Shown here piece by piece: positions 1 to 23,179 of a DNA stretch of 64,000 nt. Position numbers and translations under genes: made by a program. A model generated the notes under the pieces. The model had not been told where the DNA came from. It did not search any database and saw only the letters and a list, made by a program, of their open reading frames with translations. Source of the stretch: an uncultured Bacilli bacterium (lineage in GTDB: Bacteria > Bacillota_I > Bacilli_A > RFN20 > CAG-826); assembly GCA_934168325.1 (NCBI GenBank), contig CAKPNG010000001.1, positions 37,018 through 101,017 of the forward strand, written 5' to 3'. Each line of letters starts with the position of its first letter. The stretch's first letter is position 1.

Positions 1-1
1 A

Positions 2-3000
2 AGAACTTTAAACTCTGAAACAATTGTAACCAAAACGATTGTTAAGGATAATTCTAATGAGCACGCAAACAATGGTTTCTGTTCTATCGCCCGCGGAAAT
101 GAAAATTATATTAAGGATAATTTCGTTCTAAATTTTGATTATTATATAAATTAGGGACTCATTAATAAGAACATTTTTATAAATGACCTCTATTTGAATA
201 CAAATAATTATTTAGGCTATTATACTGGTTTGAGAAAACTTAATACTGAGCGAGATGGATTGGCTGAAAAACGAGTTCAACTTGCTAAAGCAATTATGGA
301 ATTAACAAGCCAAGAAAAGGTTTATGAAAAAGCTTATCATAGTGCTTTGGATGCTTATAATTTAGCTCGAAATAATTTGAAACTTTATTGCGGTATTGAT
401 TATGAAAATTTTAATGAATATGTGCTGACTACTGATTTAATTAGAGATAGGTCAAAAACCTATTACATAAAAAATTCAGATGGCACTTACTCCTATGCTT
501 TTACTGAAGAAAATATTAATAATGAGTTTGAATATAAGTTAGACCCAAATATTAAATATTATGAAAAAGTTAATGCAAAGCATTATATAAAAACTAACGA
601 TGTCCGCCCGCAGATAAATAAACAATATTTCTATATTGCAGAAGATGTATTTTCTACTTCGGCTTTAGAAGCAATTAGTGAAAACATTTATGATACTACT
701 CTCGATTTAAGTGCGGGCGACGGTAAAAAATATTATAAAGCAACGCCCACGGACTTAATTCAAAAATTTGAAACGGGCACTGATTATTATCGTTATACTG
801 AAACTTATAAAAAAATTAATTAGGCGGATATGATATATAATCAATATTATTATGAAAAAGACGAAAATGGTAATTTTATTGAATATTATCATCGAGCAAT
901 TTTTAGGCCTGGTATTCATACTTACTACGAAAAAATAGTCAGCTATCAAAAAGTTAATACAACAATAGCTCCTGAAAATGACGTAAAATACTATACAAAG
1001 CAAATTGTCAATGGATAGACTACTTTCATACTTGCTAATTTGACTACTTTTATTGACGGTCGCAATTATTATGAAGAAAGTGAGATTGCGAAATACCGCC
1101 AAATTATTGTTGATAAAGTTTCAGATAAAAACACTTATTATCTTTATGATGAAACAACTAATACTTATAAAGAATTAATTCGGTCTGAATCTATGAAGCG
1201 GGCGGACTATTATGAACGCTTATTTACTGATACAATTAAATCTTATATTGCGGAAGTCGGTGTTTATGATTATAATGTTAAAGCTAATTTAGCTCTATGG
1301 ACGCAAGCAAAAAATGATTTAGATAATAAGCAAAAAGAATTTGATAATTTTGGCGAGCGTTTAAAAGAAATTACAGCTCAAAAAGAAACCCTTGACCAAA
1401 AATTTTATGAGAAATATTCACGCTTTATTCAAGAAGGGTCTTGGATTGATGAGAATTATGTAGATGATACATTATACTATCTTGACGCGGTTTCTGTAGC
1501 TCACGATAGTGCCTTCCCGCAAACAACCTATAACATTAGCGTTGTGGAATTAAGTGAATTAGAGGGATTTGAACCTTTCTTGTTTAATGTGGGCGATAAA
1601 ACTTACATTGAAGATACTGAATTTTTTGGTTGGCAAGAAGATGGTATAACTCCTTATAAAGAGGAAGTAGTAATTTCCGCTGTAAGCTGGAATTTAGATG
1701 ATCCTACACAAAATTCAATTACTGTTCAAAACTTTAAGACTCAATGGGAAGATCTATTTCAAAGAATTACCGCTACAACTCAATCTCTACAATACCATAC
1801 AGGTGATTACTCCAGAGCCAGTAATTCTTTTAATACTAATGGCACGCTTGATAGGGAGACTTTACAAAATACTTTTTTTGAAAACTCGTTTGTAATTGAA
1901 AATGCTAAAAATCAATCTGTCGTCATTGATGAACGAGGAATTACAATTACTGATTTAGCAAAAGCTTCAAATATTTTATAGCTGAATAGTAGTGGTTTAG
2001 CAATAAGCAATGATGGCGGAGTTAATTGGACTTTAGGTATTACAGCAAATGGAATCAATGCTTCTGCAATTACAACCGGTTATCTTAATACTCAAGAAGT
2101 TATCATTGGTGATAAAATTAATCCTACTTTCCGTTGGGACAAAGAGGGCATTAATGCTTATGCTCATAGCGGAGCCTATTTTAATGCGAATAAATTTGTA
2201 AGATTCGATTAGTTTGGTCTTTATGGAATTAATAACGCGGGCAATGAAGGTTTTAATCCACTCGTTGAAAGTGAAGAATGGGTTATTGATACTGATAAAA
2301 TCGCAAGATATTTAAAGCCAGTCATTGGTGAAGAAAAAATTTAGGCTGTCGCTGATTTCTCTTTAACTTGGGAAGGATTACAATTTAAATCACAAGAACG
2401 CGATGCAAGCTATATTTCAATTAGCTCTAAAAATGATTTTTAGGTAATTTCGCAAGCTCAAGAACGAATTAAAATTGGTGAATTAGAAAATAATCTTTTT
2501 GGATTGCGTTTAACAAATGAACAAGGATATACCACTTTAAAGACCACTGATAAAGGTGAGTTAATTTTAAGTGGTTACATGGAAATTAATCCAAGCTATT
2601 CCGATTATGTAATTCCTTATCAGTCAAGAGTCGTGTTGGGTAATCGCGGGCGGTATGAACCACGATATAGTGATACTGAATTTAGTTTAACTAATGATAC
2701 GCAAAAACAAGAACATCCTTATTATAAATTAGTTGAGAGCGACGGATATTTTTATTATGTGGAAGTTGAAGATGCTGATTGGGGGGATGTGGAAAATCCT
2801 AATCCTTCTGAAATGGGCTTCTATGAACCTAATATAAAATATCAATTTAGTAAAATTTTTAGCGTTTTTAACTATGACGAAAAAGCCGAACCAGCTTTCC
2901 AAAGGCTGGATGAAGAAGATCCTATTTTATATATTACTGATGATGGATATTTATTTGCTCAAAATGCTGAAATATAGGGCCGTATTGAAGCTACTGAAGG

Positions 3001-5224
3001 TTATTTAGGTAATTAGAATGTAATTATTAATAAAACAGGTATTTCTATTTACAAGTCTAATGATACTTTTAAATCTGACCCTGTTTTCTATATTGATGAT
3101 AGTGGTAATGTAGTATTTAAAGGTAAATTAGAAGGTGCAACTGGTACTTTTTCTGGAGATTTAAAAGTTCTTAGATTAATTGTTGAGAAGAATCAAAATG
3201 AAATGGTGTTAAGTAGCACTAACACTTATGCTGAAATTACCCAACCTACTACATTGGAAAAAGCATATGGCTACTATTATGAGCCGAAAGCAGAAACTAG
3301 CTATACGGGTATAGGCCCTTATGAAACTACAAAAGATTTATCTCTTTTCTTAAAGCCTGAAAGTGGAGAAGATAATCGTGTTCTTAAAGATTATTGGTTC
3401 TTTGATAAAAAACCACTTTATCAAAAGGGATTTTATAGTTCTACGTTTTTTGATAGTAGCCAAAAATTAGGCTTCTTTATTGACCCAGAAACGGGTGCTA
3501 TTATTGCCAATCAAATTAGTTTAGGTTCAGCGAATTTAACAGAAAAACTTACACTTGGCGCTATTACCGGCACACCCGCTTATATTTATAATCCTGACAG
3601 TTATGAAAATAAGGTAATTGAAAGCGGGGCTTTAATAATTTATAATGATGGCAGAGCAACGTTTGGAGACACTTTGACGTTAAAAAAGGATTATGCTTAG
3701 TTTGGTTTAATTACCGTCGATGGAAAAAATTCTACTATATCTGGCATAAATCCTTATATAAATGGTATTAATGCCTGGACAATTGGCGTTGATCGAGATT
3801 TAGGTGGATTTGGACGCTTTAATTAGCTGACGGCAAACGCATTAAATGTAGAAACTGCGGTATTTGATACTGCATCGGCTCGACTTTCGGGCGGTATTAA
3901 TGTCTTTAAAAACGGTGTTTTAATTGAATCGGTTTCTTTAATTGAAAACCGCCCAGGGCATTATTTAGTTAAGTGTAAAGATAGCACCGCTCTGACTAAT
4001 GTAGCTTTAGATGATGTTGTATTTTTAACAAAAGAAAATATTAGTATATCTGAGCGTTATTCTAATGGAATGTATGGTACAATTACTGATGTTTATTAGG
4101 ATGAAAAATCTGGTTATTTTGAAGTTTTTTCTACTAATGCATTATCTGCACTTGATTTTGACTTTGCTTTAGTCTTAGGCAAAAAAACAAATACAAACAA
4201 ATTAAAAGAATGGATTATTGGAGTCAATGCAACAGCTCGTGATATTGATGCTTTAGGATTGAGGAAAAATTCTATTAGTTTTACTTCGGTTAAAAAAGAA
4301 GACGGAACTCTTAAATTTACTGATGAAGTTATTATTGGACAAATTCCTTTAAAAGTAATAGATCCTACGACTTATGCCACAAGTGAAGAAACAACTTCCG
4401 GTTTATATGCGACATCGGTATTTTTGACAGGAACTTTAACTACCCGCTATAATTCTGCTACTAATTAGAAATATGCAGGCATTAATACCTTAAGCTCAAC
4501 ACCATTTATGATTGAGCGAATGAGAGACAATGATACTAGTCCTATTGTCTTTTGGGCAGGCGCTGAAAGTACAAATTTTGAAGATATTCAAAAAGCTCCG
4601 TTCCAAATTAGTTCTAATGGTTCTCTTTACGCAAGCCAAGGATATTTTACTGGGTCGATTATCACTGATACTACAATTGAAGCTTCGAAAATCATCGCCG
4701 CGACTATTTTTGGCCGGGAGGATGGAAAAGCTTTAACAATTCAGGATGCTGATATTGGTATAGATTTTAATGATAGTGAAGGCAAAACTATCTTTTAGGT
4801 TGCTCGTGACCACTTCTATATTAATGAGGAAGTTAATAAAATTAATATTCCATCTATACATTTAACTAATCCAGAGTTAGCTTTTAAAGAAAATAGCATT
4901 TATATAGATTCGAGTAATATTTATTTTGGCAATATTTTAGAAAAAGTAGCAGGCTCTCATACAGAAGATGAGTTAAAAAATACTTTTTATTTAGAATCAG
5001 ATAAATCTGATTATTTTAATTGGGCAATTAAATTTGATAATAAAGTGGATGAATTACAATTCACTTATCATAATTTAATTTTAGCAAAAATGGCGAAAGA
5101 AGGACTAACTACTACTGAAAATTTCTATGTTAATAAAAATGTTCATTATAGTGATAAAGCAATTTTAGCTTAGAGATTAAATAAAGATAAATCAGTTGTT
5201 GGTTATGACTTATTTATTGAGTAA
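2..5224 (+). CDS. Giant virion structural protein (tail/host-interaction-like), 5'-truncated at window edge; requires about 25 in-frame TAG codons to be read as sense
   Basis: Listed ORF fragments 194-823, 830-1018, 1040-1981, 2504-2977, 3203-3700, 4259-4468 and 4508-4798 all lie in frame 2 and are separated only by TAG. I read the gaps codon by codon and found no TAA or TGA. Frame 2 is open from nt 2; the first TAA is at 5222-5224. Confidence 0.7.
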
Positions 5225-5239
5225 AAGGAGTAATAGTTA

Positions 5240-7687
5240 ATGAAATTTGAAGTAAAACATATATACGATAGCACGGTGGCGGATAAAAACGCCATCGTGG
5301 CTAACGCTTTACAATTTAATATAGTTGCTGGCTCTGATATAGAAACAACGCCATCAACTGCTAATACCTATAAATTTTATTATGGAGAGTCTACAGAAAC
5401 CGCAGAACCTTTTTTAATTACTAATTAGTTATCTACTAACTATTATTTTAAAAAAGATTAGTGGGAGAGTGAGAATACCTTAACTTTAGAGAGCGGAAAT
5501 AGATATTTTGACTGTGATAAATTAACTATTAAAGTATTTTTGCCTGCGACACAAGAACCACTTATTCTATCAACTGAACAAGAAAAAACACAAGAAGAAA
5601 ATCTTTCTTTAAGGCCTGAATAGGCAAAACTTGTGGCTTGGGTGTCTCCTTTGGTTTTAGTTTAGAAAGAAGGAGACTTTGAACGGCCCGCGAGCGTAGC
5701 TGAACTTGCTCAAAATTATGCTTTAAAATTAACCGCAATTAATTTAAGTATTAGTTCAACTAATTAGGAGTTTTCCCAATGGTCGCCAAAATTAATTAAC
5801 TATCATTATTGGTTAAATTAGGCCACTGATCAATATATTGATATACCAATCGCACCTCTTGCTTTTCCTTTAGAAATTGGGCATATAAATGAACAAAATA
5901 TTTTAGATAATTTTTCTTTTAATTTTACGCTTACTTTAGGGAAAAAAGATTAGACAGATTAGATTACCTTGTTAAATTTAAAAGGTAGATATTTAATTGT
6001 AAATCAAGGGTACTTATTTTTATAGCCTGAAATAGCGGATAATAATACTTATAAAATCATATAGACGAGTGCTAATAATGGCGAAACTTTAATAGCTTCT
6101 CATATTCAAATATAGGAAGCTAAGTTTTCAGAATTAATGTCTGGTTTATCTGCGGGCCGTGAAGATTTATTTGATTATCATATTTATTTAACAGTTGAGG
6201 ATTCTGAGAAAGACTCGAAAGTTGCGGGAGTCCAAGATTTTCAATATTTGACAACATTAAATTTGATATTTAGGGAAAAACCTTTTTTTAAAGGTAGGTT
6301 TAAAAATACGGATTTAACATGGACCTTAGACAAAAATGATTTAACAAATTATTCCTGGCACGATTTAATGAGTCCTCAATAGATTGTTGGTGATTATTTT
6401 TATAATGCGGGGGTTTCATTTAAATTTAATTTTGATAATGCAATGCCATAGTTATGCGGACAAAATTTGTAGAAATATGTCCTTTATGAGAGTGATGACC
6501 GCGGTATTCATTATTATAGACTATTGGAGCTTGATCCTAGCAAAGATAATTCAAATGAAGCTATTTATACTGTTATAAGACGTTCTGCCGCGGCGAATAT
6601 TCGTTATGGAATTGGTATTATTACAATAGACAAAAAGGGCTATTTATTAGAAACACCATTTGATAATATTTTAAAAATTAATTTAACATTGCCAATTGGA
6701 CGCATTTCAACGCCAATTGCACTTATTGATAATTGTATTGCTGATCAAATGGTTTTAAAACCACAGTTAAAAATTGTGGATTATGGTGGTAATAACCAAA
6801 AGGATTCTAATATTAGCAAATTGCCAAGTTTAGCAGGCTATTTTGGTTAGCAAGTAAATTTATCTTGCACAATTGAATTTGAATATAGTCAAAATAAAAA
6901 ATTTTTAAATTCCAAAAAAGTTACACAAATTATTACTTTAACAGAAGGCCAATCTTATTAGTCAATTAACTGGTCTAATTTATTTGATTAGAGCGGTTTG
7001 CCACTAGCTGATGAATCTGATTTATCTGCAACGCTTTATTTACGGGCAACACTGAGCTTTGTCTATGGTTGTCAAGATAACATTGATTTACTTATTTGTG
7101 AAACCCCAATTTATACTCATTTTGGGTTAAAGCAATTGCCAACAGTGTCCTATTTAAAAAATTAGATTGGTATTAATACTCCGAACTTAGCTAATAATGA
7201 AGTAATTGGAATTACTTCAACAACAGATAAAGCATTAATTCGTTTGTTAAATGGAAGTGAGCATTACTCTTCTCTAAATATTAATACTCGCAATTTACAA
7301 GAGTTTATAATTAATTGTGGAAGTTGGGATGATGCTGAATTTGGTTATACTAATTTTTAGGTCATTTCAAATTTATTGCAAGATGGTTCACCGCAAATTA
7401 TGAAATATGAAGCAGTTGAAGTTCCTGATATAAATGACACAACAGCAGTAGAAGCTTTTGAAGCCTTATGGAATTCATAGACTGACCTTTATGTTCGAGT
7501 TCAAGAATATGATGTTAATGGTAATTTAATTAACCGTGTAAATTATTCTAAAATTTATTTGAAAAAAGGCCATGACTGGAAAGAAGTATGTAAAGGTTTT
7601 ACTACAATTTATAAAATTACAAATAACCTATCTTATGGATGGTTTTATGATAAATCCCATTCAAAATTTACAGTTGTATAGGAGTAA
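5240..7687 (+). CDS. Large virion structural protein, TAG-recoded (about 815 codons)
   Basis: RBS aaggag precedes ATG 5240. Fragments 5240-5428, 6137-6382 and 6524-6850 plus unlisted short fragments are all frame 2, joined only by TAGs. Ends at TAA 7685-7687. Confidence 0.65.
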
Positions 7688-7702
7688 AAGGAGGAATAAA
7701 AT

Positions 7703-8569
7703 ATGGCAGATTATCAAAGTAGCTATACTGGTTCCGTTATTGACGAAGCTATTAGCAGAGCCTTAACTTTAACAAAATTAGATGGAACAGTATTAGAAAA
7801 TTAGAATGAAACTTATGTTGTTGTGGCGTCTAAAAAGGATGGTAATTTTTCTTATCATCCGCTTAAGTTTAGTCAAATGCCAGTTTAGGTTGTCCCGAAA
7901 GAAGAAGGATCGACAATAACATTTCAATTATTTACTATAAACGGGCGAGGCCCAGAGGAAAACAATCCTGGAGCTTATGTTCTTGATGCGGGCCGTATTC
8001 CTTATGCCGAGACCTTGACTGATGACCTTACGTTAAGAACAAATTCTGTATATTGGCATTTAAAAGATGTTATAGGCCGTAGTAAAACTACAGAAACTAA
8101 TTTAAGTAATCATATTGATAATAAACTCTTATTAAATGAATTGAATAAATTAGCGGAAAATGAGACAAAATTTTATCATATTGAGGGTAAAGTGTGTTAT
8201 AAATGGAATGATAGTATTGATAATGCTGATGAACATATAGCAGATAAAACTATACATTTAGCTCAAACAGATAGAGACTTATTAGCTGCTTGCCAAATCC
8301 ATTTAAATGACATAACTAAGACGGATAGTCCATTCCAATACCATTTAAGCGGAACTGACCGCACTTTTTTAACGAATCTTCAATCTACTGGAACAAATAG
8401 TATTATTGCAATACAAAATCAACTTGAAACTAAAATTGATACTGCTTTTGAAATTGGTTCAGTTCCCACTAACCAAAAGAAATTATGGATTGATACTGTT
8501 AATAATGTTTTAAAATATTATAACCCAACGAAAAAGGATTGGGTAATCGTTCCTGTAGCCTATTCGTAA
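7703..8569 (+). CDS. Virion-associated protein, TAG-recoded (288 codons)
   Basis: RBS aaggagga then ATG 7703. In-frame TAGs (e.g. GAA AAT TAG AAT). Joins listed ORF 8015-8569. Ends in TAA. Confidence 0.6.
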
Positions 8570-8570
8570 T

Positions 8571-8599
8571 TTGACTTTTTTAGAAATTTATGCTATAAT
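8571..8599 (+). promoter_or_regulatory. sigma70-like promoter TTGACT-N17-TATAAT
   Basis: TTGACT at 8571-8576 and TATAAT at 8594-8599. Same architecture recurs at 22487-22514(-), 33294-33323(-), 40266-40294, 47297-47324, 52135-52163, 56004-56032(-) and 60079-60108. Confidence 0.55.
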
Positions 8600-8638
8600 A
8601 AAATTATAAAAGAATAAAGAATAAAGGAGTTTAAATAA

Positions 8639-9022
8639 ATGAAAATTAATGATTTGCTACAATTAAGTGCGGTTTATCAAAGAATTGACGCAGGAACGAC
8701 TGAAATTCCTTTTAAAACAGCTTATAAATTTGTTCAATTAAAAGAAGCTATTGAAAAGCCTTTAACATTTTACCAAGAACAAATGAATAAACTGATAGAG
8801 GAATATGCACAAAAAGATGAAAATGGTCATTACAAAATGACAGAAGATAGACGAGATGTTTTAATAGTTGAAGGAAAAGAGCAAGAATGCCATGAAAAAG
8901 TTATGGAGCTTGAGGCTTGTGATTTTACAATTCCTGATATTACTTTTTCGCTTGATGAACTTGCTACCCTTTCTGTAAGTCTTAGCGAAATGACTGCCTT
9001 AATGCCATTTATTCAAAAATAA
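8639..9022 (+). CDS. Hypothetical protein (127 aa), no TAG
   Basis: Intact ORF with RBS aaggag, lying between a promoter upstream and a terminator downstream. Confidence 0.6.
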   Translation: MKINDLLQLSAVYQRIDAGTTEIPFKTAYKFVQLKEAIEKPLTFYQEQMNKLIEEYAQKDENGHYKMTEDRRDVLIVEGKEQECHEKVMELEACDFTIPDITFSLDELATLSVSLSEMTALMPFIQK

Positions 9023-9048
9023 ATTTATATAAAAATGATAAAAATTTA

Positions 9049-9090
9049 GGACTAGGGATTTTTAAAATAATCCTTAGTCCTTATTTTTTT
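9049..9090 (+). terminator. Rho-independent terminator
   Basis: Stem GGACTAGGGATT/AATCCTTAGTCC followed by a T run. Confidence 0.7.
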
Positions 9091-9140
9091 ACTTAATTAT
9101 GAGAAGGGAAAAAGAAAAAAAGTTCTTTTGAGGTGATTTT

Positions 9141-9473
9141 ATGACAAATATTCCATATAATTCAATGCCATCTTTTTAGGCATAGCAATATTTCCCCACG
9201 CCATAGGGCAACGTTTATTTTATTAATAATTCATTAGAAATGGCAAATGTTCCTATGGGAAATAACTTATCTTTAGCAATTTGTATGAGTGAAGGAGTAT
9301 TTTATATTAAAACATTACAAAATGGGACTCCAACTTTAATGGCATATTAGTTTAGTGCTTATGAACCAAAAAATGCAGTTCCGCAATCAACTACAAATTT
9401 TGAAGAACGACTTAAAAAAATTGAAGAAGCAGTTTTTCCTAAAAAACAAACATTAGGAGGTAAGTTAGAATGA
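9141..9473 (+). CDS. Small protein (110 codons) with 4 in-frame TAG
   Basis: RBS tgaggtga then ATG. Reads MTNIPYNSMPSF*A*QYF... ending ...EERLKKIEEAVFPKK... Ends at TGA, which overlaps the next ATG. Confidence 0.4.
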
Positions 9474-9667
9474 TGAATATGAATATGCCGATGCCTAATT
9501 TTCAAGGAGGCCCGCAAAATAATTTTAATCAACAACAGTTTATTATGGGACTTTCTCAATTAAATCAGCAAACTTTAAATGAATTAATTTCACGAGCAAA
9601 ACTATAGGGAATAAGTGAATAGGACATTTAGGCAGGCTTAAATTTTATTAATTAGTATAGAAGATAA
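9470..9667 (+). CDS. Small Q/N-rich protein (65 codons) with 4 in-frame TAG
   Basis: RBS ttaggaggt then ATGATGAAT. Ends at TAA 9665-9667. Confidence 0.4.
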
Positions 9668-9717
9668 GTTTAACTTATCTTTTTATATATAAAATTTTTT
9701 AAAAAGGAGATGTTAAT

Positions 9718-10401
9718 ATGGGTGATTTATCTGTTGCTGATGCAATGGCATTAAGCAGAAGAGATGACGACTATGGTGGAGGTTGGTTTAATAATCCATT
9801 TATTTACCTCGTATGGATGTGGGTTATGCGTGCTTTTAATGGCGAGAATGGCGGAAATGCTTTAACTCAGGCGGAATTATTTGATGGTCTTGGCCGTCAA
9901 GACATTTTAGGCAATCAAAGAGAAATACAGCAGGCTTTATGTGGCCTTGGCAAAGAAGTTGCAACTGGCTTTGGCAATACGAGATATGATAATTTAAATA
10001 ATACTTTTTCTTTGCAGTCCGACATTAATGCGGGCTTCGCTGGTGTAGAAAGAGGCCTGTGCGATAACCGTTTCGCTCAGCAAGAATGTTGCTGTGCTAC
10101 ACAACGAGCGATTGATGGCGTTCGTTCTGAAGCTTATAAAAATACTTGTGATATTACTACTGCAATTCATGCTGAAGGTGAAGCTACTCGTGCTTTAATT
10201 ACCGAAAAAACGATGCAGGAACTCCGTGATAAATTGGCTGATCGTGATCGGGATTTACTTTATGCAAATTTCCAAAATTCCCAAAATATGCAAAATTCTT
10301 ATTTAGTGGAAACATTACGTCCAATAGCTAAACCTGCGTATATTACTTGCAGCCCCTATCAGGCTTCGACTCCTACTTGTGCCGGCTGTCAAACCTACTG
10401 A
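9718..10401 (+). CDS. Hypothetical Cys-containing protein (227 aa); GC-richer and TAG-free, possibly an abundant virion protein
   Basis: Intact ORF with RBS aaaaggaga. Local GC about 40% against about 33% background. Confidence 0.6.
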   Translation: MGDLSVADAMALSRRDDDYGGGWFNNPFIYLVWMWVMRAFNGENGGNALTQAELFDGLGRQDILGNQREIQQALCGLGKEVATGFGNTRYDNLNNTFSLQSDINAGFAGVERGLCDNRFAQQECCCATQRAIDGVRSEAYKNTCDITTAIHAEGEATRALITEKTMQELRDKLADRDRDLLYANFQNSQNMQNSYLVETLRPIAKPAYITCSPYQASTPTCAGCQTY

Positions 10402-10431
10402 GTTATCGCTATTAAGGAGAGGTGATAACCT

Positions 10432-10842
10432 ATGTATAACACGACAAATACGACACAGCAGACTGTCGCGACTGATAGTTTAGTTAATTTAGGTTCTTCT
10501 ACATTAAGTTGTTGTAAAATTGCTCATGATGCTGGTTCGTCTGATGTAGCAATTAAAGCTTCTGGAAATTATTTAGTTTTGGTAAATATGGATGTAATTA
10601 CAGCTGGCACAACTGGTAATATTATAATGCAACTGTTTGGAAATAATAATTTAATTAGTGGCGCGCGTGCTACTGTTAATTCTGCAACAGCTAATGGTAT
10701 TGAAAATATTAGTTTTCAAATGCCTATTACTGTATTACCTAATTGTTGTGCTATTCGAAATAATTTACCACTTGTTTTAACTATAAAAAATTTAGGAGTA
10801 GATGCCACAGTATCTAATGTGTCATTTACTTTAATTCAATGA
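10432..10842 (+). CDS. Hypothetical T/S/N-rich beta-type protein (136 aa), TAG-free
   Basis: Intact ORF with RBS aaggagaggtga. Confidence 0.6.
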   Translation: MYNTTNTTQQTVATDSLVNLGSSTLSCCKIAHDAGSSDVAIKASGNYLVLVNMDVITAGTTGNIIMQLFGNNNLISGARATVNSATANGIENISFQMPITVLPNCCAIRNNLPLVLTIKNLGVDATVSNVSFTLIQ

Positions 10843-11138
10843 GAGTAATTAAAGTTTTATCCAAGCAGATTGAGGAAGAACTAGAAGACTCAAACAAATA
10901 TATTGACAGCGCTTTAACTTATAAAACTTAGTTTCCGAAATTGGCTGAAACCTATATTGAATTAGCTAATGAAGAAATTGGCCATGCCGAACGACTTCAT
11001 AAACAAGTAGTTAGCTTAATTAGTGAAATTCAAATAGAAACACCTAAATTTATGCAAGAACTTTGGGAAGAAAAACATATTGAACTAATTACAAAAACAG
11101 CAGAGTTAAAAACAAAAATAGAATTATATAAAAAATAA
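10839..11138 (+). CDS. Hypothetical protein (99 codons) with 1 in-frame TAG
   Basis: ATG overlaps the upstream TGA (ATGA). The listed ORF 10941-11138 extends upstream through one TAG to this ATG. Confidence 0.5.
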
Positions 11139-11143
11139 AAAAG

Positions 11144-11180
11144 GCTGGGAGTATTTTTTACTCCCAGCTTTCTATTTTAT
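11144..11180. terminator. Bidirectional intrinsic terminator
   Basis: Stem GCTGGGAGT/ACTCCCAGC flanked by T-rich runs on both strands. Confidence 0.65.
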
Positions 11181-11892
11181 ATACCTTATTAAAAGTGTGC
11201 GAAGCATAATAACCAATACCTACGGCATCAGCTTCATCTTCTGATAAAGACACGTCATATTTATCTTTTGCTAATATTTGCATAGCTCTTTTGCGATCTG
11301 TCCGCGTTTTACCTTTAATTCCACAATAATTCCGCCAAGTCGCTGTATGACAAATTTCATAAGGAATTTTTAATTGGTAAACAGTATTAATTAAAACCCC
11401 TTGAAGCCAAGCCAGTTTTTGAAAAACTATCACACCCATTTGACGATTTTCACTTTTATCCTAAAGCTATATTCCTTCAAAAGCAATTAAGTCAGGTGAG
11501 TAATTAATAATCATTGAGTTCAGCCAAACTCTAATTTGGTTAATGCGGTCATCGTCATCACCACCGCCGGCTTCAAATATACCATATTTAACTAATTGTT
11601 CATTATCAAAAATAGCCCAGCCCGTTAAATGGCTTGCCTAATCTAATGCTAGTGTTCTTTTAACTCCTCTCGGCTTTGAAACAATTTCTTTTGTCATTTG
11701 CTTTAACTAATTCTATTGACAAATTGGACAAAAACGTTTATCTCGCTATTTTTTCCAAGTAGAGTAAACTTTATGTCCTTCATCGCACTCAAACACTAAT
11801 TCACTATCTAAATTCTTATATTCTTGAGAAATTAATTTCCATTTGTCCTATGTCAAAGTTTCTTTAATTTGCTCAATTGTTATTTTACTCAT
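11158..11892 (-). CDS. ruvC: RuvC-like Holliday-junction resolvase with N-terminal zinc ribbon; 7 in-frame TAG
   Basis: The C-terminal part is listed ORF 11158-11439 (..DEADAVGIGYYA). Extending upstream through TAGs gives MTKEIVSKPRGVKRTLALD*ASHLTGWAIF...IAFEGI*L*DKSEN, a RuvC N-terminus. Further upstream lies a zinc ribbon (FECDEGH...CPIC). The ATG at 11892-11890 overlaps the dUTPase TGA. Confidence 0.65.
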
Positions 11893-13140: not shown

Positions 13141-14415
13141 TCAAATTTTTTTGCGTAAAATTTGGTTTAAAATAAAGCCCAATACAATAGCGAGACTAAC
13201 TCCACTAAAAGCACTATCAAAAAGCCAAATCCCACTAACACCTACTGTCAATATGACAGAAACAATAATTAAATTTTTATTATCTTCTAAATCAACTTTA
13301 TTATTTAATAAAGTCTTAAGACCACTAGATGCAATATATCCATAAAGAATCATTGCACAACCGCCAAACACACAAGAAGGAATTGAATTAAAGAAGACTT
13401 GAATTGGTTCAAAAAAAGCAAGCCCGCCTAAAATTAAAGCAGATATTGTTGTTATTACTGTTGAAGCAACACGGCTAAAACCAATTGTTGCTATTGCCTC
13501 GCCATAGCTGGTATTAGGCAGTCCGCCCACAATTGAGCCAACTGTTGAAGCGATACCATCACCTAAAAGTGTTTTGTAAAGTCCTGGTTTTTTTGTTAAA
13601 TCAGTTCCAATTATATTCGATAATACTTTATGATCTGAACAATGCTCCATCGCCGAAGCTAAACTAACAGGGACAAATAGTAAAATAACTTTACCAATTG
13701 TTGCCCAGTTAAGTTCTGAAAAATTCCAATTCATAAAAGTTAATTGAGGAAATTTAAATAAACTAATTCCTCTAAAGGCTTCAAGATCAATAAGTGAAAT
13801 AACACCACTTATAGTCAAAATTAAACTTACAATATAACCTGCAAAAATACCAATTAAAAAAGGAATTGTTTTCCAAAAGCCTTTAAAATAATGTGAGCTA
13901 AGAGCTACTACAAACATAACAAAAATTGCAATAACTACACCAATTTCAGACTGTTCTCCATTAACTTGGACGTAAGTCGGGATAAAACCCGCAAGATTTA
14001 CACCAATTACAATTGTAATAGCTCCAATTATTGTAGGCGGGAATAATTTATTAAAGCTATCCTGTCCTTTTATTTTAATTAAAAGAGCCAATAATCCATA
14101 AACAATTGCAATAACTACACCACCAATTGCAACTGCCAAGTAATTGGGAGCTGCGCCGATTGCAAGAGCACCTATAACTGCGGAAACTGTAGCTCCGCAA
14201 GAAGAAATCAACATTGGAGATTGACCTTTGGTAATTAACTGGTAAGTTAAAGTGCCAAGACAAGCACCAAGCAAACACGCATCAATAGGTGTTCCGCAAA
14301 TATTAGCAATTAAAATTGTTGCAACAATACAACTCGACACCATTTGGAGTGGGTAAAGCGCCCACTCTTTTAGCGTTTTTGGCTTTTCATTTATATCATA
14401 AAGGAGATTTTTCAT
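13141..14415 (-). CDS. NCS2-family nucleobase permease (uracil/xanthine permease-like)
   Basis: About 12 TM segments. Motifs LFPPTIIGAITIVIGVNLAG and GLPNTSYGEAIATIGFSRV match the UraA family. Confidence 0.8.
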   Translation of the reverse strand: MKNLLYDINEKPKTLKEWALYPLQMVSSCIVATILIANICGTPIDACLLGACLGTLTYQLITKGQSPMLISSCGATVSAVIGALAIGAAPNYLAVAIGGVVIAIVYGLLALLIKIKGQDSFNKLFPPTIIGAITIVIGVNLAGFIPTYVQVNGEQSEIGVVIAIFVMFVVALSSHYFKGFWKTIPFLIGIFAGYIVSLILTISGVISLIDLEAFRGISLFKFPQLTFMNWNFSELNWATIGKVILLFVPVSLASAMEHCSDHKVLSNIIGTDLTKKPGLYKTLLGDGIASTVGSIVGGLPNTSYGEAIATIGFSRVASTVITTISALILGGLAFFEPIQVFFNSIPSCVFGGCAMILYGYIASSGLKTLLNNKVDLEDNKNLIIVSVILTVGVSGIWLFDSAFSGVSLAIVLGFILNQILRKKI

Positions 14416-14516
14416 TAATCAAATTCAACCTCCTTTTCTTTTATAAAGGCAATTACTTCTTCAATTGAAGAAACAAGGACACCACTTTGTTTAATAATGC
14501 CCGTCACAAAAATGTT

Positions 14517-14930
14517 CTAATAACTATACTGTTGTTCACCGAGAGAACTTGCTCCGCCCGCATCTTTAGCGTCGCTATGAGTTAAATAACACTGACGGTT
14601 ATCAGTACAAATTCCAACTATATATTTATGATCACCGCGGCGAATTTTTTCTCTCATTATACCAATTTCTGAGCAAGTTCCACTTGGAAGGACATCGCCA
14701 TCAATGCACGCTACAAGAATGTCAGTATTATCAAGTCTTGCACAATCAGCGTTTGCAATCATTTGAGAATCTGCAAACTTCTTTTTCCCTTCAACACCAT
14801 TAATCTCGGTGTTTTGAAGGGGGTCATAAATATCGGCTGTTGGGAAAGCTTCAGTTAGTTTTTCAAAAAAATAGTCATTGCGAAATTTATCACCTAAACA
14901 AAAAATTCCGCCAGCTAAATAAATTTTCAA
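14517..14930 (-). CDS. Nucleoside 2-deoxyribosyltransferase-like protein
   Basis: TTG start after RBS aaggagg. Motifs YLAGG..F and SGTCSEIG (catalytic Glu). Ends in TAG, followed by a 33-codon open extension. Confidence 0.5.
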   Translation of the reverse strand: MKIYLAGGIFCLGDKFRNDYFFEKLTEAFPTADIYDPLQNTEINGVEGKKKFADSQMIANADCARLDNTDILVACIDGDVLPSGTCSEIGIMREKIRRGDHKYIVGICTDNRQCYLTHSDAKDAGGASSLGEQQYSY

Positions 14931-17391: not shown

Positions 17392-18442
17392 GCATTAATT
17401 CCTCCTTTGCTTCTCCATAATGATATTTTTGTAAATGTTCAAAAAAGTTTGGATAATTATAACGCACCACTTTCATAATTTCGCGGGCTGATGTTTTTTC
17501 TTCATTTTTTAATCTTTTGCAAAAATCAAGAAAAGGTGGCGAATAACCCCAATGTGCTTTTTCTTGGTATTTATATGCCCATATTAAATAACGGTTTAAA
17601 AGCCGTGCTATTTGTTTATTCCGATTAGATAAATTATCAGTAATTAAATTAATGGGTAAATGCCAGTTAATTGTATATAAAAGTTGATTATATAAAGAAA
17701 CCCATAGCTCATCGGTATAGCGTTGAGTAAATGGGTTATAATTGATTATTTTAGGATTAACTTTTCGTTGTTCGCTAAAACATATCAATTCTTGTGCAGT
17801 TAAAGGGAAATTTATATTAAATGTTGTGGCAGAAACTTTATAACGTAAATTTTGCCACGACAGTAATGTTTCAAAATTACTAAATTGAAGGGGGAATTTA
17901 AATCCAATATGGGTTTTTAGAGGGTCAATCCCACACTTATATTCTAATAAGTCTGCTATTGTTTCACGGGCGCCCGCAATAGAAGTTATGTCATAATCAT
18001 AGCAAAAAATTGAGTAATCTTTAGATAAAACAGGTAGATCGTTAGTAAATAAGGGATTAATAGTTTTCCCATCAAGTGATAATCGAAAATGTTCACCCGA
18101 CATCATTGATTTAAAAAGAGCTTTATCTCGAAAATAACTTTCTTTATCAAGATAAATTGTTTTATCTGGGCAATATTTCTCTTCATCAATAGACTGATAT
18201 TCTTCTGAAAAATAATGACCGCCATACTGAATTTTAGAATAACTAAAAAAGTCAATTGGTAAGTTATTTAAATCACTGTCTTTTCTTAAAATAAATTTTG
18301 TATAGCTATCAGGAATAAAGAGAGGAGAGAGTTTCACAATCTCTCTTCTCCCCTTATAAAATTTAGCCATTTTCATTAATTCTAAATTAAAAAAATCATA
18401 GTCGTGATTCATTAAATCATTATCATATAAGCCAATACTCAT
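17378..18442 (-). CDS. Hypothetical protein (354 aa)
   Basis: Intact ORF co-directional with the replication genes. Confidence 0.5.
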   Translation of the reverse strand: MSIGLYDNDLMNHDYDFFNLELMKMAKFYKGRREIVKLSPLFIPDSYTKFILRKDSDLNNLPIDFFSYSKIQYGGHYFSEEYQSIDEEKYCPDKTIYLDKESYFRDKALFKSMMSGEHFRLSLDGKTINPLFTNDLPVLSKDYSIFCYDYDITSIAGARETIADLLEYKCGIDPLKTHIGFKFPLQFSNFETLLSWQNLRYKVSATTFNINFPLTAQELICFSEQRKVNPKIINYNPFTQRYTDELWVSLYNQLLYTINWHLPINLITDNLSNRNKQIARLLNRYLIWAYKYQEKAHWGYSPPFLDFCKRLKNEEKTSAREIMKVVRYNYPNFFEHLQKYHYGEAKEELMHDWS

Positions 18443-21400
18443 TATGCAATTCCCTCATCTCTACGATTATTAATAACTAATGTTCCATCTTCCTTGACTT
18501 CTTGAATCAAATCAACTAAGTGATAAGGAGTTGATTTATATTTTTTACCTTGAAAACTTTTATCTCGTCTAATACCAGTAATAATAAGTTTATTACCACG
18601 ACTAAAATCACTTTTTCGAATTATATGTTTATGGCCATCGGCGCCTTTTTCAGAAATTTGTTTATCATAATAACTGAAAACTTCACCAAATATTTTTACA
18701 ATTACGACCCCTTCAGTAGTCAAAAGTGTAATTGTTTTCTTTTGTTTATCTCTATCTAATACAGTTCCTGCGATTCGATAAATTTTAAATATAGGAATTT
18801 CTTTACCTTTTATTGGGAGAATGCGATCAATAGTTGGGCTTTCATTTAAATCATAGAAATTACTAATATTATAATTACTAAAATTAACATTCTCCAATTC
18901 GTGTTGATGTTGATAGCATGAAATACTATCCATTTCCCACTTACTTAAAGAACCCAGGCAATATTTATTCCACATATCACTCATTAATCGCTCATTAACT
19001 TGTTCAAGTAATTCTGTGCTATTTTGTTTAACCCACGGTCTAATTTGATCCATATATTTTTGATAAATTTTATCCCATTTTAATGAATCAATTGCAAAAC
19101 CGCTTTCGCTATCAGCGGGCGTAAGTAAATCCATATCAAAATGTTTTTCATAAAAAGTAAAAGCTATATTATCAAGTTGAAATTGCTGAACTTTTTTCTG
19201 TCGTTTTAAATATTTGTTAAAATTATAAACTCTTTTAACTAAATCAAATTCTTCCGGAATTAACCCAAAATTAATTAACATTGCCATATTTTGAAGTGTG
19301 ATGCGTTGCTTCATATCACTAATTGATGCAACATACTCCCTCATCAATTTAACACGGTTAGGTTCAATTTCATCAAACGCCCCACATTTAATTAAATTAA
19401 TCATTTGTGGTTTTTTAACTTTAACTTTTGTTATAAAATCTTGCCATCCTGCGTAAGGACGTTGAATTAGAATTTCTTTTACAACATCTTCACCGACGCC
19501 GCTAATTCCACTCATTCCATAAAGAATGGTTTTTTCGTCTTGATCAACAGAAAAAGTAAAGGTAGATTTATTTATGTCAGGCGGAGCAACTTCAATGCCT
19601 GCCATTCTCATTTTACCAATTGCAGTAGCGATACGTCCATAATCGGTAGTTTTTTGTTTTTTCTTCTTTTTATCAGTTGTTTTTTCGAGTTCTTCGTTAT
19701 CGTCATCATCATTTTCATCTTCATCTTCATCATCGTCATCTTCATTTTCACAATTATTTTCAGAAATGTTATCCGTTAATTCATCAAAACAATCAATAAC
19801 TTCAAATTCATTTTCATCAATGTCATTTTCTTGCTCTCGTTCTATAATTGATTGACTATTTACTATTAAACAAGCACAGTTCCAATAAATTGATGGCCAT
19901 TGTGTTGCTAGAACAAGCGTTTGAATGCCAATAAAACTATATAATAGAGAATGAACTTCTGAAAAACTATAACTCATCTGTGGTTCCATCATTGTTTTCC
20001 AAGCGTATTCGCCAAGAGTTTTAGTTGGGCATTGAGCTAAAAATTTTTCTTTAACTTTAGGAATTTCTTTTATCTTTTTTTTCGCTAAAACTTTTCGACA
20101 TTGATTACTTTCAGCCAATGTAAAATGAGAAATTTTGGGGTCCATTACCATTAGCATCAACATTTCTTGAGAACAAGGAACGCCATAATCTCGTTTATAA
20201 TAAGGCTCTAATATTTTTTGTTCTTCAGGTGTTAATCCTGCTTGAGTCATTTCTTTATACCATAAATTAATATTGTTTTTAAAAGCAATATAACGATCTA
20301 ATGGTCGTTCTTGGCCAGGCGGAGCAACAAGTCTAAGTAAGGCATTAGCAGAAGTTAATTCAGCAGGTGTATGTGGTCGAATTGCTTTTGCAGTTTCAAT
20401 ACCAATTTGAGTATTAAATTGAAAAACATCTTGAACTTCGCCATTGGCAAGTGCTTCCCAAATTCGCGGATTTTTTAAATTTAAAACTTGCGGATGAAGA
20501 TATTTATTATAAATTTCTCGCTTTGTTTTACAATCATTGAAATATCCTCTTTCCTGAAGAAGGTCGAGACAAACTGAAATTTTATCACAAATATCCGTCA
20601 CCAAAAAGTCAAATTTTGTATCTCCTACTTCTTCTGACTTTTTTAAGTCAAATTGCGTTGTAATGTCTCCATTTGGACTCCGCATTAATGCAGTGGTTTC
20701 AAAAGGAGAATTATTATACATCATAACACCACTCGCGTGTTGCCCACGACGACAAACCAATCCTTCAACACCCAAAGCAATTTCTAATAAACCAGGATAT
20801 TGATTAAATTGACGAACTAATTCTTTTACAGGTTTTCTTTCTTTTTCTTCATTGCCATAAAAACAGTCATTTAAACTCCATACAATACCGCGTTCTACAG
20901 GGACAAGGCTTGACATATATTGTGCAATATCTACATCAATGCCTTTTGGGCAATCTTTTGAACGATAACCTTTACAAGCACATTGAATAGATGCTTTTGA
21001 ACTTTCAGTCCCAAAAGTTGCTACTTGCACAACATTTAATTGCCCGCGTTCTTCTCTAATTTTATCAAGAATTAATTTACGTTTTGAAGGAGTTAAATCT
21101 ATATCAATATCCGGGAGTTCTGCCCTGTCTTTATTTAAAAATCTAAAATACGGCAAATTCCATTTAACTGGATCAAGCTGAGTAATTCCCAATAAATAAT
21201 TTGATAAAAAGCTTCCTGCACTGCCACGACCTGGTCCCGTGACCGATCCGCATTCCCAAAACAAATCCATATAATGTTGAAATGTATTAAAATAAGAAAA
21301 TAGGCAGTTATTTAATTTTTCACTAATGGTTCGAATTACATCAGCTTCTAACTCCAAACGTTCCATATGGATTTTATCATTTAATTTTTTTTCATTTAAG

Positions 21401-21900
21401 GAATACCAACATTCATTAAACCATTTTCGTTCTTGACGATTTTTACTCTGTCTTAAATAATTTAAGTTTGGATAGATAGTTAAATCAACATTTAAGAATT
21501 CTGGTTCATCAAATTTTACTTCAGGAATAATCGGCGAGTGGAATAAGTGATATTCGCCTATTTTATTCATTAATTCAAGAGAGTTCTGACACATCTCTTG
21601 AAATTCTTCATAAGTATAAAATTCTTTAATATTATTATACGCTTCTTCATCTGACATTAAATGAGCGTCATGATAAAAACTGTCAACTTCTCGCTCACCT
21701 TCTTTAGAATTAAGAAAGGATTTATGAATTTCTCGATACTCACTTGTTAAATAGTGAGCATCGCACCCTAAAACAATTTTTCGATTATAAAATTTTGCGA
21801 TAGGCTTTATTCTCTGATTAAAGATTTTTTGATCAGGGGAAGTGCCTGGCGCCATTTCAATATAAAAATCATCACCAAATAAACCAATACAATATCGCAT
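18442..21900 (-). CDS. dnaE: DnaE-family (C-family) replicative DNA polymerase, core from listed start; acidic low-complexity insert
   Basis: LPDIDIDL active-site motif with downstream ..VATFGTE..; GLFGDDFYIEMAPG matches the DnaE PHP C-terminal region. The true N-terminus probably lies upstream (see 21901-22443). Confidence 0.8.
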   Translation of the reverse strand: MRYCIGLFGDDFYIEMAPGTSPDQKIFNQRIKPIAKFYNRKIVLGCDAHYLTSEYREIHKSFLNSKEGEREVDSFYHDAHLMSDEEAYNNIKEFYTYEEFQEMCQNSLELMNKIGEYHLFHSPIIPEVKFDEPEFLNVDLTIYPNLNYLRQSKNRQERKWFNECWYSLNEKKLNDKIHMERLELEADVIRTISEKLNNCLFSYFNTFQHYMDLFWECGSVTGPGRGSAGSFLSNYLLGITQLDPVKWNLPYFRFLNKDRAELPDIDIDLTPSKRKLILDKIREERGQLNVVQVATFGTESSKASIQCACKGYRSKDCPKGIDVDIAQYMSSLVPVERGIVWSLNDCFYGNEEKERKPVKELVRQFNQYPGLLEIALGVEGLVCRRGQHASGVMMYNNSPFETTALMRSPNGDITTQFDLKKSEEVGDTKFDFLVTDICDKISVCLDLLQERGYFNDCKTKREIYNKYLHPQVLNLKNPRIWEALANGEVQDVFQFNTQIGIETAKAIRPHTPAELTSANALLRLVAPPGQERPLDRYIAFKNNINLWYKEMTQAGLTPEEQKILEPYYKRDYGVPCSQEMLMLMVMDPKISHFTLAESNQCRKVLAKKKIKEIPKVKEKFLAQCPTKTLGEYAWKTMMEPQMSYSFSEVHSLLYSFIGIQTLVLATQWPSIYWNCACLIVNSQSIIEREQENDIDENEFEVIDCFDELTDNISENNCENEDDDDEDEDENDDDDNEELEKTTDKKKKKQKTTDYGRIATAIGKMRMAGIEVAPPDINKSTFTFSVDQDEKTILYGMSGISGVGEDVVKEILIQRPYAGWQDFITKVKVKKPQMINLIKCGAFDEIEPNRVKLMREYVASISDMKQRITLQNMAMLINFGLIPEEFDLVKRVYNFNKYLKRQKKVQQFQLDNIAFTFYEKHFDMDLLTPADSESGFAIDSLKWDKIYQKYMDQIRPWVKQNSTELLEQVNERLMSDMWNKYCLGSLSKWEMDSISCYQHQHELENVNFSNYNISNFYDLNESPTIDRILPIKGKEIPIFKIYRIAGTVLDRDKQKKTITLLTTEGVVIVKIFGEVFSYYDKQISEKGADGHKHIIRKSDFSRGNKLIITGIRRDKSFQGKKYKSTPYHLVDLIQEVKEDGTLVINNRRDEGIA

Positions 21901-22443
21901 AAATTTATCAATTTCTTGTTTTAACTGATGGATTTGCTCTTCATCATTAATTTTTTCTGCTTTAGCTAGTTGAATGACATGAGTGCCGATGAAACCGCCA
22001 ATGCAGGCACAGTCAGAAATAAGCGTTCCAGGATACTTTTTAATAATTGCAGATAACTCGCTTTTTAATGTTGGAACACGCTCAAGTCCTCGATCACGAT
22101 ATGAATGAAGCCAAGCTTGAGAAGATAACTCTCGTAATGCTCGATGTCCTTCAGTATTTTTAGCAATTAAAAGAAAATGCCAATATTTTTGTTTAGGTTC
22201 TCGCGTATCAGTTAAATAAATTTCATTTCCTAAGGCACATTTAAAATTTTGATCAATTTTTCCTTCTTCTTTTAATTGTTTTTCTAATTGAAGCCATTCA
22301 ATATGCCCACAAAGTGCCTCGTGGTCTGTTAAAGCAATTCCCGCATAACCTAATTCTGAGGCTTTCAGAATTAAATCTTTAGGTTTATTTATGGAGTCAA
22401 TGAGCCTTATACTAGAGAGAAGTGAGAATGACTATGTGTTTCA
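21901..22443 (-). other. In-frame upstream extension of dnaE encoding a PHP-domain N-terminal segment (IALTDHEALCG), with no canonical start and 1 TAG
   Basis: About 179 codons run open, in frame with MRYC, back to a TGA at 22441-22443. An HxHxH-like motif (THSHSHFSLV) lies in the -1 frame after a GTG at 22451 and an RBS-bearing ATG at 22459. Confidence 0.4.
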
Positions 22444-22486
22444 AATCTCACTAAGACATCACCTACCTTTCTATCTTTCTAATATA

Positions 22487-22514
22487 ATTATATCATAATT
22501 TATCTTAAAAGTCA
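22487..22514 (-). promoter_or_regulatory. sigma70-like promoter upstream of dnaE
   Basis: rc TTGACT-N16-TATAAT. Confidence 0.5.
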
Positions 22515-23179
22515 AGTTTTTGATAAATATATACTGATTCATCAGTTGAATTAACTAACCCGCCAATTGATTTCACTCGTTTGATATTTTTTAAAGGTAT
22601 TATATCAATTAATTCAAAACCTTTTCTATGAATAATAGCTGAAGTATCTGCTATTAAATTATGATTTTTTAAATCTTTTATATTCAAGGCTAAAATTCCT
22701 TTTGGAATTAAATATTGTTTAATATTTTCAATAGTTGGTTCAAAATATTTTAAAAGCCAATCGTTATAATTAGGATAAAGCTTAATACTTTGTTCGCCAA
22801 TATTATAGTTTTCTAAATCGAAATAGGGAGGGCTACTAAAAGCTAATCCAACTGAATTGGCCCACTCAGGAATAAAAATTTCACTACCGCAATCTTTTAA
22901 AACAACTTTACTATTATTAGATATATTGCTTTTCCAGTCTTTTGTAAAATCATTAAGGCGCTCAATTAATAAATAATTAGGGTCGGTTCCAAAATAATTT
23001 TTATTATGTTTTAAAGCAGAAGTTAATCTTGCTCCCCATCCACAACTAAAATCATAAATAGTATCATTTATCCCATATTTTTCAATGACTTCATCTGCGA
23101 CTTTAATTGGAAAATTAGTGGGAATTTGAGCATAAGCTTTTCCTCCTAAACTGATTGCTTTTCCGATATTATAAGCCAA
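22505..23179 (-). CDS. DNA N6-adenine/N4-cytosine methyltransferase
   Basis: Motif I DFSCGWGARL and motif IV SSPPY. Confidence 0.75.
   Translation of the reverse strand: MAYNIGKAISLGGKAYAQIPTNFPIKVADEVIEKYGINDTIYDFSCGWGARLTSALKHNKNYFGTDPNYLLIERLNDFTKDWKSNISNNSKVVLKDCGSEIFIPEWANSVGLAFSSPPYFDLENYNIGEQSIKLYPNYNDWLLKYFEPTIENIKQYLIPKGILALNIKDLKNHNLIADTSAIIHRKGFELIDIIPLKNIKRVKSIGGLVNSTDESVYIYQKLDF

Follow-up and report, generated by a model that had tools for sequence, protein, structure and literature searches.

Predicted reading of TAG as glutamine in a ~128-kb tailed gut phage lineage

Reading frames joined across TAG and the genes that carry it

The window is a 64-kb stretch of DNA with 33% G+C (64,000 nucleotides; positions 37,018 to 101,017 of contig CAKPNG010000001.1, which is filed under an uncultured Bacilli bacterium), and its subject here is the TAG codon, which interrupts many of its genes. 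The window is very probably one half of a tailed gut phage genome of ~128 kb whose replication module is SPbeta-like and which is translated with genetic code 15, TAG standing for glutamine. An ENA metagenome scaffold of 128,549 bp is 100% identical to the window over 21 kb. Read from the left end, the window is composed of several large rightward genes of presumed structural role, a RuvC-like gene, a leftward block of replication and nucleotide-metabolism genes followed by five further leftward genes, a rightward fibre module, a holin and an endolysin, and an array of tRNA genes that includes an amber suppressor. No terminase is found in the 64 kb. Gene functions were assigned by profile searches against Pfam, PHROGs and NCBIfam.

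The first 8.6 kb of the plus strand are read in a single frame. Over positions 1-8569 this frame contains 39 TAG, 0 TGA and 5 TAA codons, and the other two plus-strand frames contain 398 and 139 TAA and TGA codons. At the lower of the two rival-frame densities (4.9% per codon), a run of 1740 codons free of TAA and TGA has a probability below 1e-37. An earlier note on this DNA had claimed that the plus-strand open reading frames (ORFs) of this region are parted by TAG only and belong to proteins of more than 1740, 815 and 288 codons. Both claims hold: all 39 interruptions within the joined frames are TAG, TAA and TGA are absent from their interior, and the three proteins are restored, each with a TAA terminus.

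The first of them, with 1740 codons, is the C-terminal part of a giant protein of tail or fibre type (2-5224, plus strand), which is open at the window edge and contains 15 TAGs. The second is an 815-residue protein of no known fold and a presumed tail component (5240-7687, plus strand). It contains 21 TAGs, the highest density in the window, which constitute 44% of its glutamine-type codons. These counts start at the ATG at 5240; from stop to stop (5234-7687) the ORF has 817 codons and 22 TAGs. The third protein has 288 residues and 2 TAGs (7703-8569, plus strand; 289 codons from stop to stop, 7700-8569). Two small overlapping genes of 110 and 65 residues (9141-9667, plus strand) carry 4 TAGs each. 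In L001, a close relative of the window, the orthologue of the giant protein comprises 2645 residues, is 93% identical and shares its TAGs; that of the 815-residue protein shows 74% identity and is interrupted in frame by TAG only. The three big genes within 2-8569 have no match in Pfam, PHROGs or NCBIfam, and their structural role is therefore drawn from size, synteny in relatives and a weak tail-fibre match. The giant protein gives weak tblastn matches, the weaker of which (E = 8e-6) is to a Geobacillus phage tail fibre protein.

Coding density was calculated over 1-61600 from a greedy set of non-overlapping ORFs. It is 77.7% under code 11 and rises to 93.3% with TAG as sense, as the earlier note had anticipated; with TGA as sense (code 4) there is no gain (78.8%). 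Over 1-11200, the density increases from 59%, in 17 ORFs under code 11, to 97% with TAG as sense. In total, 89 in-frame TAGs are distributed over 25 of the 66 genes. Gene termini consist of 50 TAA and 17 TGA, and TAG is needed as a stop by none. TAG is thus predicted to be a sense codon in this DNA.

The additional TAG-bearing genes named in the earlier note, which comprise fibre, M23, Cys-repeat, RuvC and GIY-YIG ORFs, all contain TAG as described, and TAG also lies within the motifs EGI-TAG-L-TAG-D of RuvC and RI-TAG-LKRD of the fibre N-domain. Conserved domains are found to either side of TAG codons: in the UvrD helicase, a single TAG separates the N-terminal helicase domain from motifs V and VI in the C-terminal domain, so a working enzyme would need read-through. 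Alignments with PDB sequences for M23 and UvrD do not cover the TAG positions informatively.

TAG is unevenly distributed. Plus-strand genes contain 7.8 TAG per 1000 codons, and minus-strand genes, leaving aside RuvC and the GIY-YIG gene at 26863, contain 0.72, which is ~11 times lower (Fisher p = 1.6e-15 for the difference between strands). In the most loaded genes, TAG accounts for up to 44-50% of glutamine-type codons. The fibre and tail-accessory module (41822-53430, plus strand) is recognized by PHROGs for tail fibre and tail assembly and by Mtd_N in Pfam; the Mtd_N-type fibre proteins and the PHROGs for tail fibres fall within 41822-48171. Its TAG-bearing genes are located at 41822-43066 (1 TAG), 46268-47293 (3), 47350-48171 (3), 48177-48602 (2), 49379-50305 (the Cys-repeat gene, 1), 51664-52047 (4), 52187-52363 (1), 52434-53081 (2) and 53083-53430 (1), with zero TAG at 43087-46222, 48617-49307 and 50327-51664. 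Downstream, the holin gene (56094-56510, plus strand) lies upstream of that for the endolysin (58689-59966, plus strand), which contains two M23 peptidase domains, as assigned by Pfam, PHROGs and alignments, and 4 TAGs.

The replication and nucleotide-metabolism block (11889-37896, minus strand), delimited by Pfam and codon counts, contains 22 genes. They encode dUTPase, a xanthine/uracil permease, a class II ribonucleotide reductase (RNR; NrdJ), DnaE, a DNA methylase, RecJ, a primase-like protein, a split DnaB with an intein, AAA_24, YorF- and YorH-like proteins, and the A and B subunits of a gyrase or topoisomerase IV. Nineteen of the 22 genes, with ~8800 codons among them, have no TAG. Among these are NrdJ, DnaE, GyrA, GyrB, RecJ and the DnaB part that the earlier note had listed as TAG-free, each with 0 TAG. 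The exceptions are a gene at 14415-14762 (1 TAG), the methylase gene at 22505-23497 (1 TAG) and a GIY-YIG homing-endonuclease-type gene between the DnaB parts at 26863-27621 (6 TAGs), all on the minus strand. Together with RuvC (7 TAGs), the latter is heavily loaded within or near the replication block. The leftward genes begin with five at 37896-41352 (minus strand): two of no known family, one GIY-YIG gene, UvrD and one of 57 residues. UvrD and this second GIY-YIG gene occupy 38334-40179.

The residue at TAG and the suppressor tRNA

The RuvC-like Holliday-junction resolvase (11158-11892, minus strand) carries an N-terminal zinc ribbon and is identified by its homologues and by an NCBIfam RuvC match (E = 0.0025). 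The homologues are assigned to Pfam PF02075 or PF07066 and are named 'RuvABC endonuclease subunit' by JGI; when PDB was searched with the protein sequence, only a chance match came up. Positions 85 (LALD-Q-A) and 142 (EGI-Q) are invariant or nearly invariant glutamine columns, and both are TAG in the window. Among relatives with 32% identity or more, only L020 (GCC) and L026 (GCT) have a codon other than CAA or CAG at position 85. Standard-code relatives have CAA or CAG at codon 142, where the window, L001 and the TAG-interrupted L012, L014 and L020 all have TAG.

The alignments of RuvC and M23, a comparison that the earlier note had suggested, contain 11 TAG columns. With the closest, possibly recoded, sequences left out, glutamine occupies 42% of these columns against a background of 3.8%, an 11-fold enrichment, and no other residue exceeds 1.5-fold. 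The standard code suffices to translate three of the homologues compared (P0010, P0074 and P0078), whose glutamine residues are therefore real; P0078, which is NCBI-annotated, has glutamine at three of the four M23 TAG sites. In addition, the four TAG sites of the gene at 9141-9473 correspond to Q, Q, Q and K in the standard-code relative L003. For both RuvC and M23, the homologues align end to end across the TAGs, contrary to what independent fragments would give. The alignments point to glutamine as the residue decoded from TAG.

A cognate tRNA is encoded near the right end of the window. The array (61626-63951, plus strand; ARAGORN and Rfam) is sequentially composed of seven tRNAs: Leu-UAA, Pro-UGG, Asn-GUU, Ala-CGC, Thr-UGU, Sup-CUA and Glu-UUC. 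The amber suppressor with anticodon CUA (63673-63746, plus strand; ARAGORN and Rfam) contains a U1-A72 pair, a discriminator G73 and an encoded CCA. Its acceptor and D stems are two bases apart, its D loop and variable loop measure 7 and 4 nt, and its anticodon stem comprises 5 bp. Bacterial tRNA-Gln is typically marked by a U1-A72 pair and G73, which GatCAB reads. A well-known precedent is supE of E. coli, a tRNA-Gln with anticodon CUA that inserts glutamine at UAG in competition with release factor 1 (RF1); it is a host mutation and its suppression is partial. The window tRNA resembles supE in its tRNA-Gln-like body, U1-A72, G73 and anticodon, but it is phage-borne, and the genome appears built to depend on it.

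A CUA tRNA is also present at the matching locus of the recoded relatives L005 and L008. In L006 and L007, which use the standard code, the M23 gene has no tRNA neighbours. The L008 allele resembles the CTA-anticodon tRNA of crAss-like phage cr272_1, annotated in RefSeq as tRNA-Gln, and a blastn search of the window CUA tRNA against phages found chance matches only. An origin of the tRNA as a recent copy of another member of the array was rejected on comparison with the array. L005 and L008 share one CUA allele type (76% identity), and the window allele differs from it. Between the window and L005 (14986-15060), the flanks are nearly identical and the CUA tRNAs only ~55% identical. The suppressor thus appears to have been exchanged between the two phages as a cassette of ~120 nt.

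A full-length ROOL RNA (62944-63565, plus strand; Rfam, 280 bits) immediately precedes the CUA tRNA, with a terminator-like hairpin (63588-63628) and a T-run between them. The order ROOL then tRNA-CUA is kept in L005 (14276-15060) and L008 (13816-14577), and no ROOL is found beside the M23 gene in the standard-code L006 and L007. The proximity of ROOL to tRNAs in prophages is already known (PMC5737381); no link of ROOL to suppressor tRNAs was found in the literature. The two might form a portable 'code-switch' cassette in which ROOL helps to express, protect or deliver the suppressor, an idea that we consider improbable. If it were true, the ROOL nanocage RNA, which has no assigned function, would take part in a genetic-code change. 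A search with an 18-nt ROOL pattern recovered just the known IMG/VR contig, and a promoter and terminator scan of 60700-64000 performed no better than on shuffled sequence. No match to the Rfam families of hepatitis delta virus (HDV)-like or theta ribozymes was obtained near the tRNAs (61500-64000, E <= 1). Between tRNA-Thr and ROOL lies a sub-threshold tRNA-like sequence (62741-62810, plus strand; 23 bits) with an irregular anticodon loop, which may be a decayed tRNA.

Genetic codes of relatives and other features of the modules

The interruptions are kept in three independently assembled relatives, L001 (93% identity in RuvC), L005 (94% in M23) and L008 (66%). In L001, all 49 of the 49 in-frame stops in orthologous alignments are TAG, and in L005 the in-frame stops within protein-coding genes are likewise all TAG. 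A database look-up revealed that the stored proteins of L001, L005 and L008 genes are not reproduced under table 11; the callers therefore used TAG as sense. In these three relatives, code 15 raises the coding density from 0.58 to 0.93, from 0.70 to 0.86 and from 0.78 to 0.88. Comparison of close relatives yields 30 sites with TAG on one side only; in 17 cases it is paired with CAA or CAG, the commonest difference. Of 52 TAGs in the window, 14 lack a TAG counterpart in L001 (93% protein identity), and 11 TAGs of L001 correspond to sense codons in the window.

More distant members of the RuvC family display several codes. By the density test, TAG-recoded contigs include L012 (0.33 to 0.90), L017 (0.49 to 0.91), L029 and L032, and TGA-recoded contigs include L043 (0.37 to 0.91), L041 and L022; many further loci use the standard code. 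The gains amount to 15-57 points for code 15 in several contigs and to 18-54 points for code 4 in others. In several relatives, TAG or TGA also interrupts RuvC itself, and coding density confirms some of these relatives as recoded. Thus, the wider family appears to use codes 11, 15 and 4. The standard-code L007 is a prophage beside tsaE, tsaD and upp in an Oscillospiraceae metagenome-assembled genome, and some of the prophage genes and neighbouring bacterial genes end in TAG. Another standard-code relative contains an integrase. No tRNA array occurs near RuvC in distant relatives. RuvC relatives in GTDB genome bins belong mostly to animal-gut Bacillota, in scattered bins that are unreliable for phage contigs. 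No close relatives emerged when GTDB genomes were scanned with the AAA_24 protein.

A crAss-like affiliation of the phage was considered and rejected. The best cultured matches of DnaE are SPbeta-like Bacillus phages (DnaE/YorL, 39% identity), and Pfam marks YorF and Phage_SPbeta_YorH on genes of the 128,549-bp scaffold, which together place the phage outside the crAss-like group. Megablast of window positions 1-25000 against the GenBank phage collection, crAss genomes included, gave no match.

The replication block displays several further features. The xanthine/uracil permease gene (13141-14415, minus strand; Pfam E = 2e-53) adjoins a nucleoside 2-deoxyribosyltransferase-like gene and the RNR gene, and the three make up an auxiliary nucleotide-salvage set that is unusual for a phage. 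In L001, an HNH/NUMOD4 endonuclease gene splits the permease gene (5296-7445); the window copy is intact. The DnaB-type helicase is encoded in two ORFs (region 26257-29777, minus strand) parted by the free-standing GIY-YIG gene at 26863-27621, and the larger DnaB part also holds a LAGLIDADG intein. The DnaE frame (18442-22440, minus strand) encodes a PHP domain in its first ~180 codons and has no start codon there. Nearby (22400-22460, minus strand), a GTG preceded by a good ribosome-binding site begins a different frame, RFETHSHSHFSLV-stop, and joining it to the long dnaE frame would need a -1 shift within TTCTCTCTAG. Programmed frameshifting, slippage during transcription or an assembly error of 1 nt could each explain the break. 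No group I intron is found by Rfam (E <= 1) at the split dnaB or at the dnaE start.

In the fibre module, a radical-SAM enzyme (phrog_1802, E = 5e-58) is encoded next to, and downstream of, a 308-residue protein that consists largely of Cys-Gly-Ser repeats (the pair spans 49379-51664, plus strand). The two may constitute a substrate-maturase pair.

The possible role of the TAG load and comparison with known recoded systems

The sense reading of TAG, its assignment to glutamine, the tRNA gene and the biased distribution are borne out by the sequence. Beyond them, the model already published by Borges et al. (10.1101/2021.08.26.457843) is the best-supported mechanism by which the phage could time its gene expression. 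The host, probably a gut Bacillota whose code is assumed to be standard, would translate TAG-free genes at once. The phage CUA tRNA would be charged with glutamine by host enzymes and would build up during infection until it outcompetes RF1. Full-length products of genes with many TAGs would arise only after this build-up, and the TAG load would therefore act as a translational gate that delays virion assembly, junction resolution and lysis. The gate would separate early from late genes, classes that we infer here from gene function.

Several observations weigh against this picture. The CUA tRNA scores poorly as a tRNA (33.6 bits), because its T stem contains a C-A mismatch and its T loop, UGCAAAU, is unusual. 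No release factor or aminoacyl-tRNA synthetase gene is found in the window, which covers one half of the genome. The two large fibre genes (43087-46222), the holin gene and the radical-SAM gene lack TAG. Conversely, UvrD and its four neighbours (37896-41352, minus strand) carry exactly one TAG each, as do the gene at 14415-14762 and the methylase gene at 22505-23497. The division into TAG-free early and recoded late genes drawn in the earlier note therefore stands as a strong enrichment (p = 1.6e-15), but not as a strict rule: it leaks both ways, with fibre and holin genes at zero and RuvC, UvrD and GIY-YIG genes carrying TAG. As an enrichment, it matches the published pattern, in line with the note's remark that such a split is known from crAss-like and other gut phages (Borges et al., 10.1101/2021.08.26.457843).

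Neutral drift predicts the same pattern, and sequence alone cannot separate it from a gate. TAG would then still be glutamine, with CAG and CAA drifting to TAG wherever the suppressor is abundant and TAG being purged from genes needed earlier, and its uneven spread would have no regulatory role. The fast turnover of TAG sites between the window and L001 is compatible with drift, many TAGs occupy variable positions (positions 15 and 49 of alignment A1, position 104 of alignment A2), and the several late-type genes without TAG also fit. However, lysis and structural genes are the preferred TAG carriers in many unrelated recoded lineages (Borges et al., 10.1101/2021.08.26.457843), and the RuvC gene is cut by TAG or TGA in several relatives, including density-confirmed recoded ones. 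Moreover, 15-21 TAGs per gene make expression steeply dependent on the suppressor, whatever the origin of the codons. We regard drift without a regulatory role as possible but rather unlikely.

The remaining alternatives concern the reading of TAG itself. It is very unlikely that the host reads TAG as an amino acid and that no code switch takes place. Phage contigs of the family are binned with many taxa, which leaves room for such a host; yet the avoidance of TAG in 19 of 22 replication-block genes would then be pointless, and the phage brings its own suppressor tRNA. The L007 prophage and the adjoining Oscillospiraceae genes also include TAG stops. To our knowledge, no bacterium that reads TAG as glutamine has been established. 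A residue other than glutamine, such as pyrrolysine or a near-cognate Tyr, Lys, Glu, Trp, Leu or Ser, is extremely unlikely, given that glutamine alone is enriched at the TAG columns and that invariant glutamine codons coincide with TAG. ARAGORN labels the CUA tRNAs 'Pyl', a call that reflects the anticodon alone, and the L005 and L008 alleles are drawn with one acceptor-D base and a sixth, G.A pair on the anticodon stem. A tRNA-Pyl has one base between the acceptor and D stems, a small D loop, a 6-bp anticodon stem and a 3-nt variable loop, whereas the window tRNA has ordinary cloverleaf dimensions; pylS and pylBCD were not found in the window by Pfam scans. That the TAG-separated pieces are independent short genes, decaying pseudogenes or assembly errors has a probability close to nil. 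Code 11 does yield 17 short ORFs covering 59% of 1-11200, but neither TAA nor TGA occurs within the joined frames, relatives assembled independently from other samples show the same TAGs, and a cognate suppressor tRNA is present. The end-to-end alignments of homologues refute the fragment and pseudogene reading.

With TAG read as glutamine, the window can be compared with known recoded systems. Borges et al. (10.1101/2021.08.26.457843) described code-15 gut phages, Lak and six further clades, with phage suppressor tRNAs and a late-gene bias, and put forward the same model. One of these, the Agate clade, has genomes of ~127-154 kb and uses codes 11, 15 and 4 (10.1101/2021.08.26.457843). Like the code-15 phages of that study, including Agate, the present phage carries TAG in structural and lysis genes and across several modules, has largely TAG-free replication genes and encodes its own suppressor. 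It also resembles Agate in its ~128-kb genome and in having close relatives that are standard-code or TGA-recoded. Unlike those phages, it has no release factor 2 gene in this half of the genome, and RuvC and a homing endonuclease in the replication block are among its most heavily recoded genes.

In crAss-like phages, metaproteomic peptides confirmed that TAG encodes glutamine (Peters et al. 2022, PMC9523058). The present phage shares the reassignment and the recoded late genes with the code-15 crAss-like phages, and the L008 suppressor resembles the CTA-anticodon tRNA-Gln of crAss-like cr272_1. It differs from them in its SPbeta-like replication module and in relatives that are binned mostly with Bacillota and not with Bacteroidota. 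The phAss-1 phages, for which the name 'Phassvirus' was proposed, are siphovirus-type gut phages of ~136 kb in which TAG is glutamine and which encode tRNA-Sup-CTA genes (Babkin et al. 2023, PMC10607447). Their genome size is similar, TAG occurs in ~28% of ORFs there against 38% here, and both encode a suppressor tRNA and no dedicated synthetase (here, within the window). However, megablast of 25 kb against GenBank phages reveals no nucleotide similarity to phAss-1, which possesses 36 tRNAs with 2-3 suppressors, compared with about 7 tRNAs and one suppressor in the window. A maturation route for suppressors has been proposed from tRNAs linked to theta ribozymes (Kienbeck et al. 2024, PMC10879173). 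In that module, a minimal HDV-like ribozyme cleaves at most 5 nt from the tRNA 3' end, and the tRNA usually has no encoded CCA (PMC10879173). In both systems, a phage CUA suppressor is thought to drive the code switch. In the window, by contrast, CCA is encoded, no ribozyme is matched in Rfam (E <= 1), and ROOL and a terminator-like hairpin precede the tRNA.

In practice, the contig needs translation table 15. Table 11 loses about 40% of the first 11 kb, and under it the tail, fibre, endolysin and RuvC genes appear shattered. Recoding, late-gene bias and the glutamine assignment have already been published and open no new question here; less usual than recoding are the adjacency of ROOL and the suppressor, the swap of suppressor alleles and the break in the dnaE frame. 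The window adds a well-resolved example of recoding from a lineage of ~128-kb phages whose replication module is SPbeta-like. Its most TAG-loaded genes include a junction resolvase and a selfish homing endonuclease, which fits, short of proof, a translational gate on late functions.

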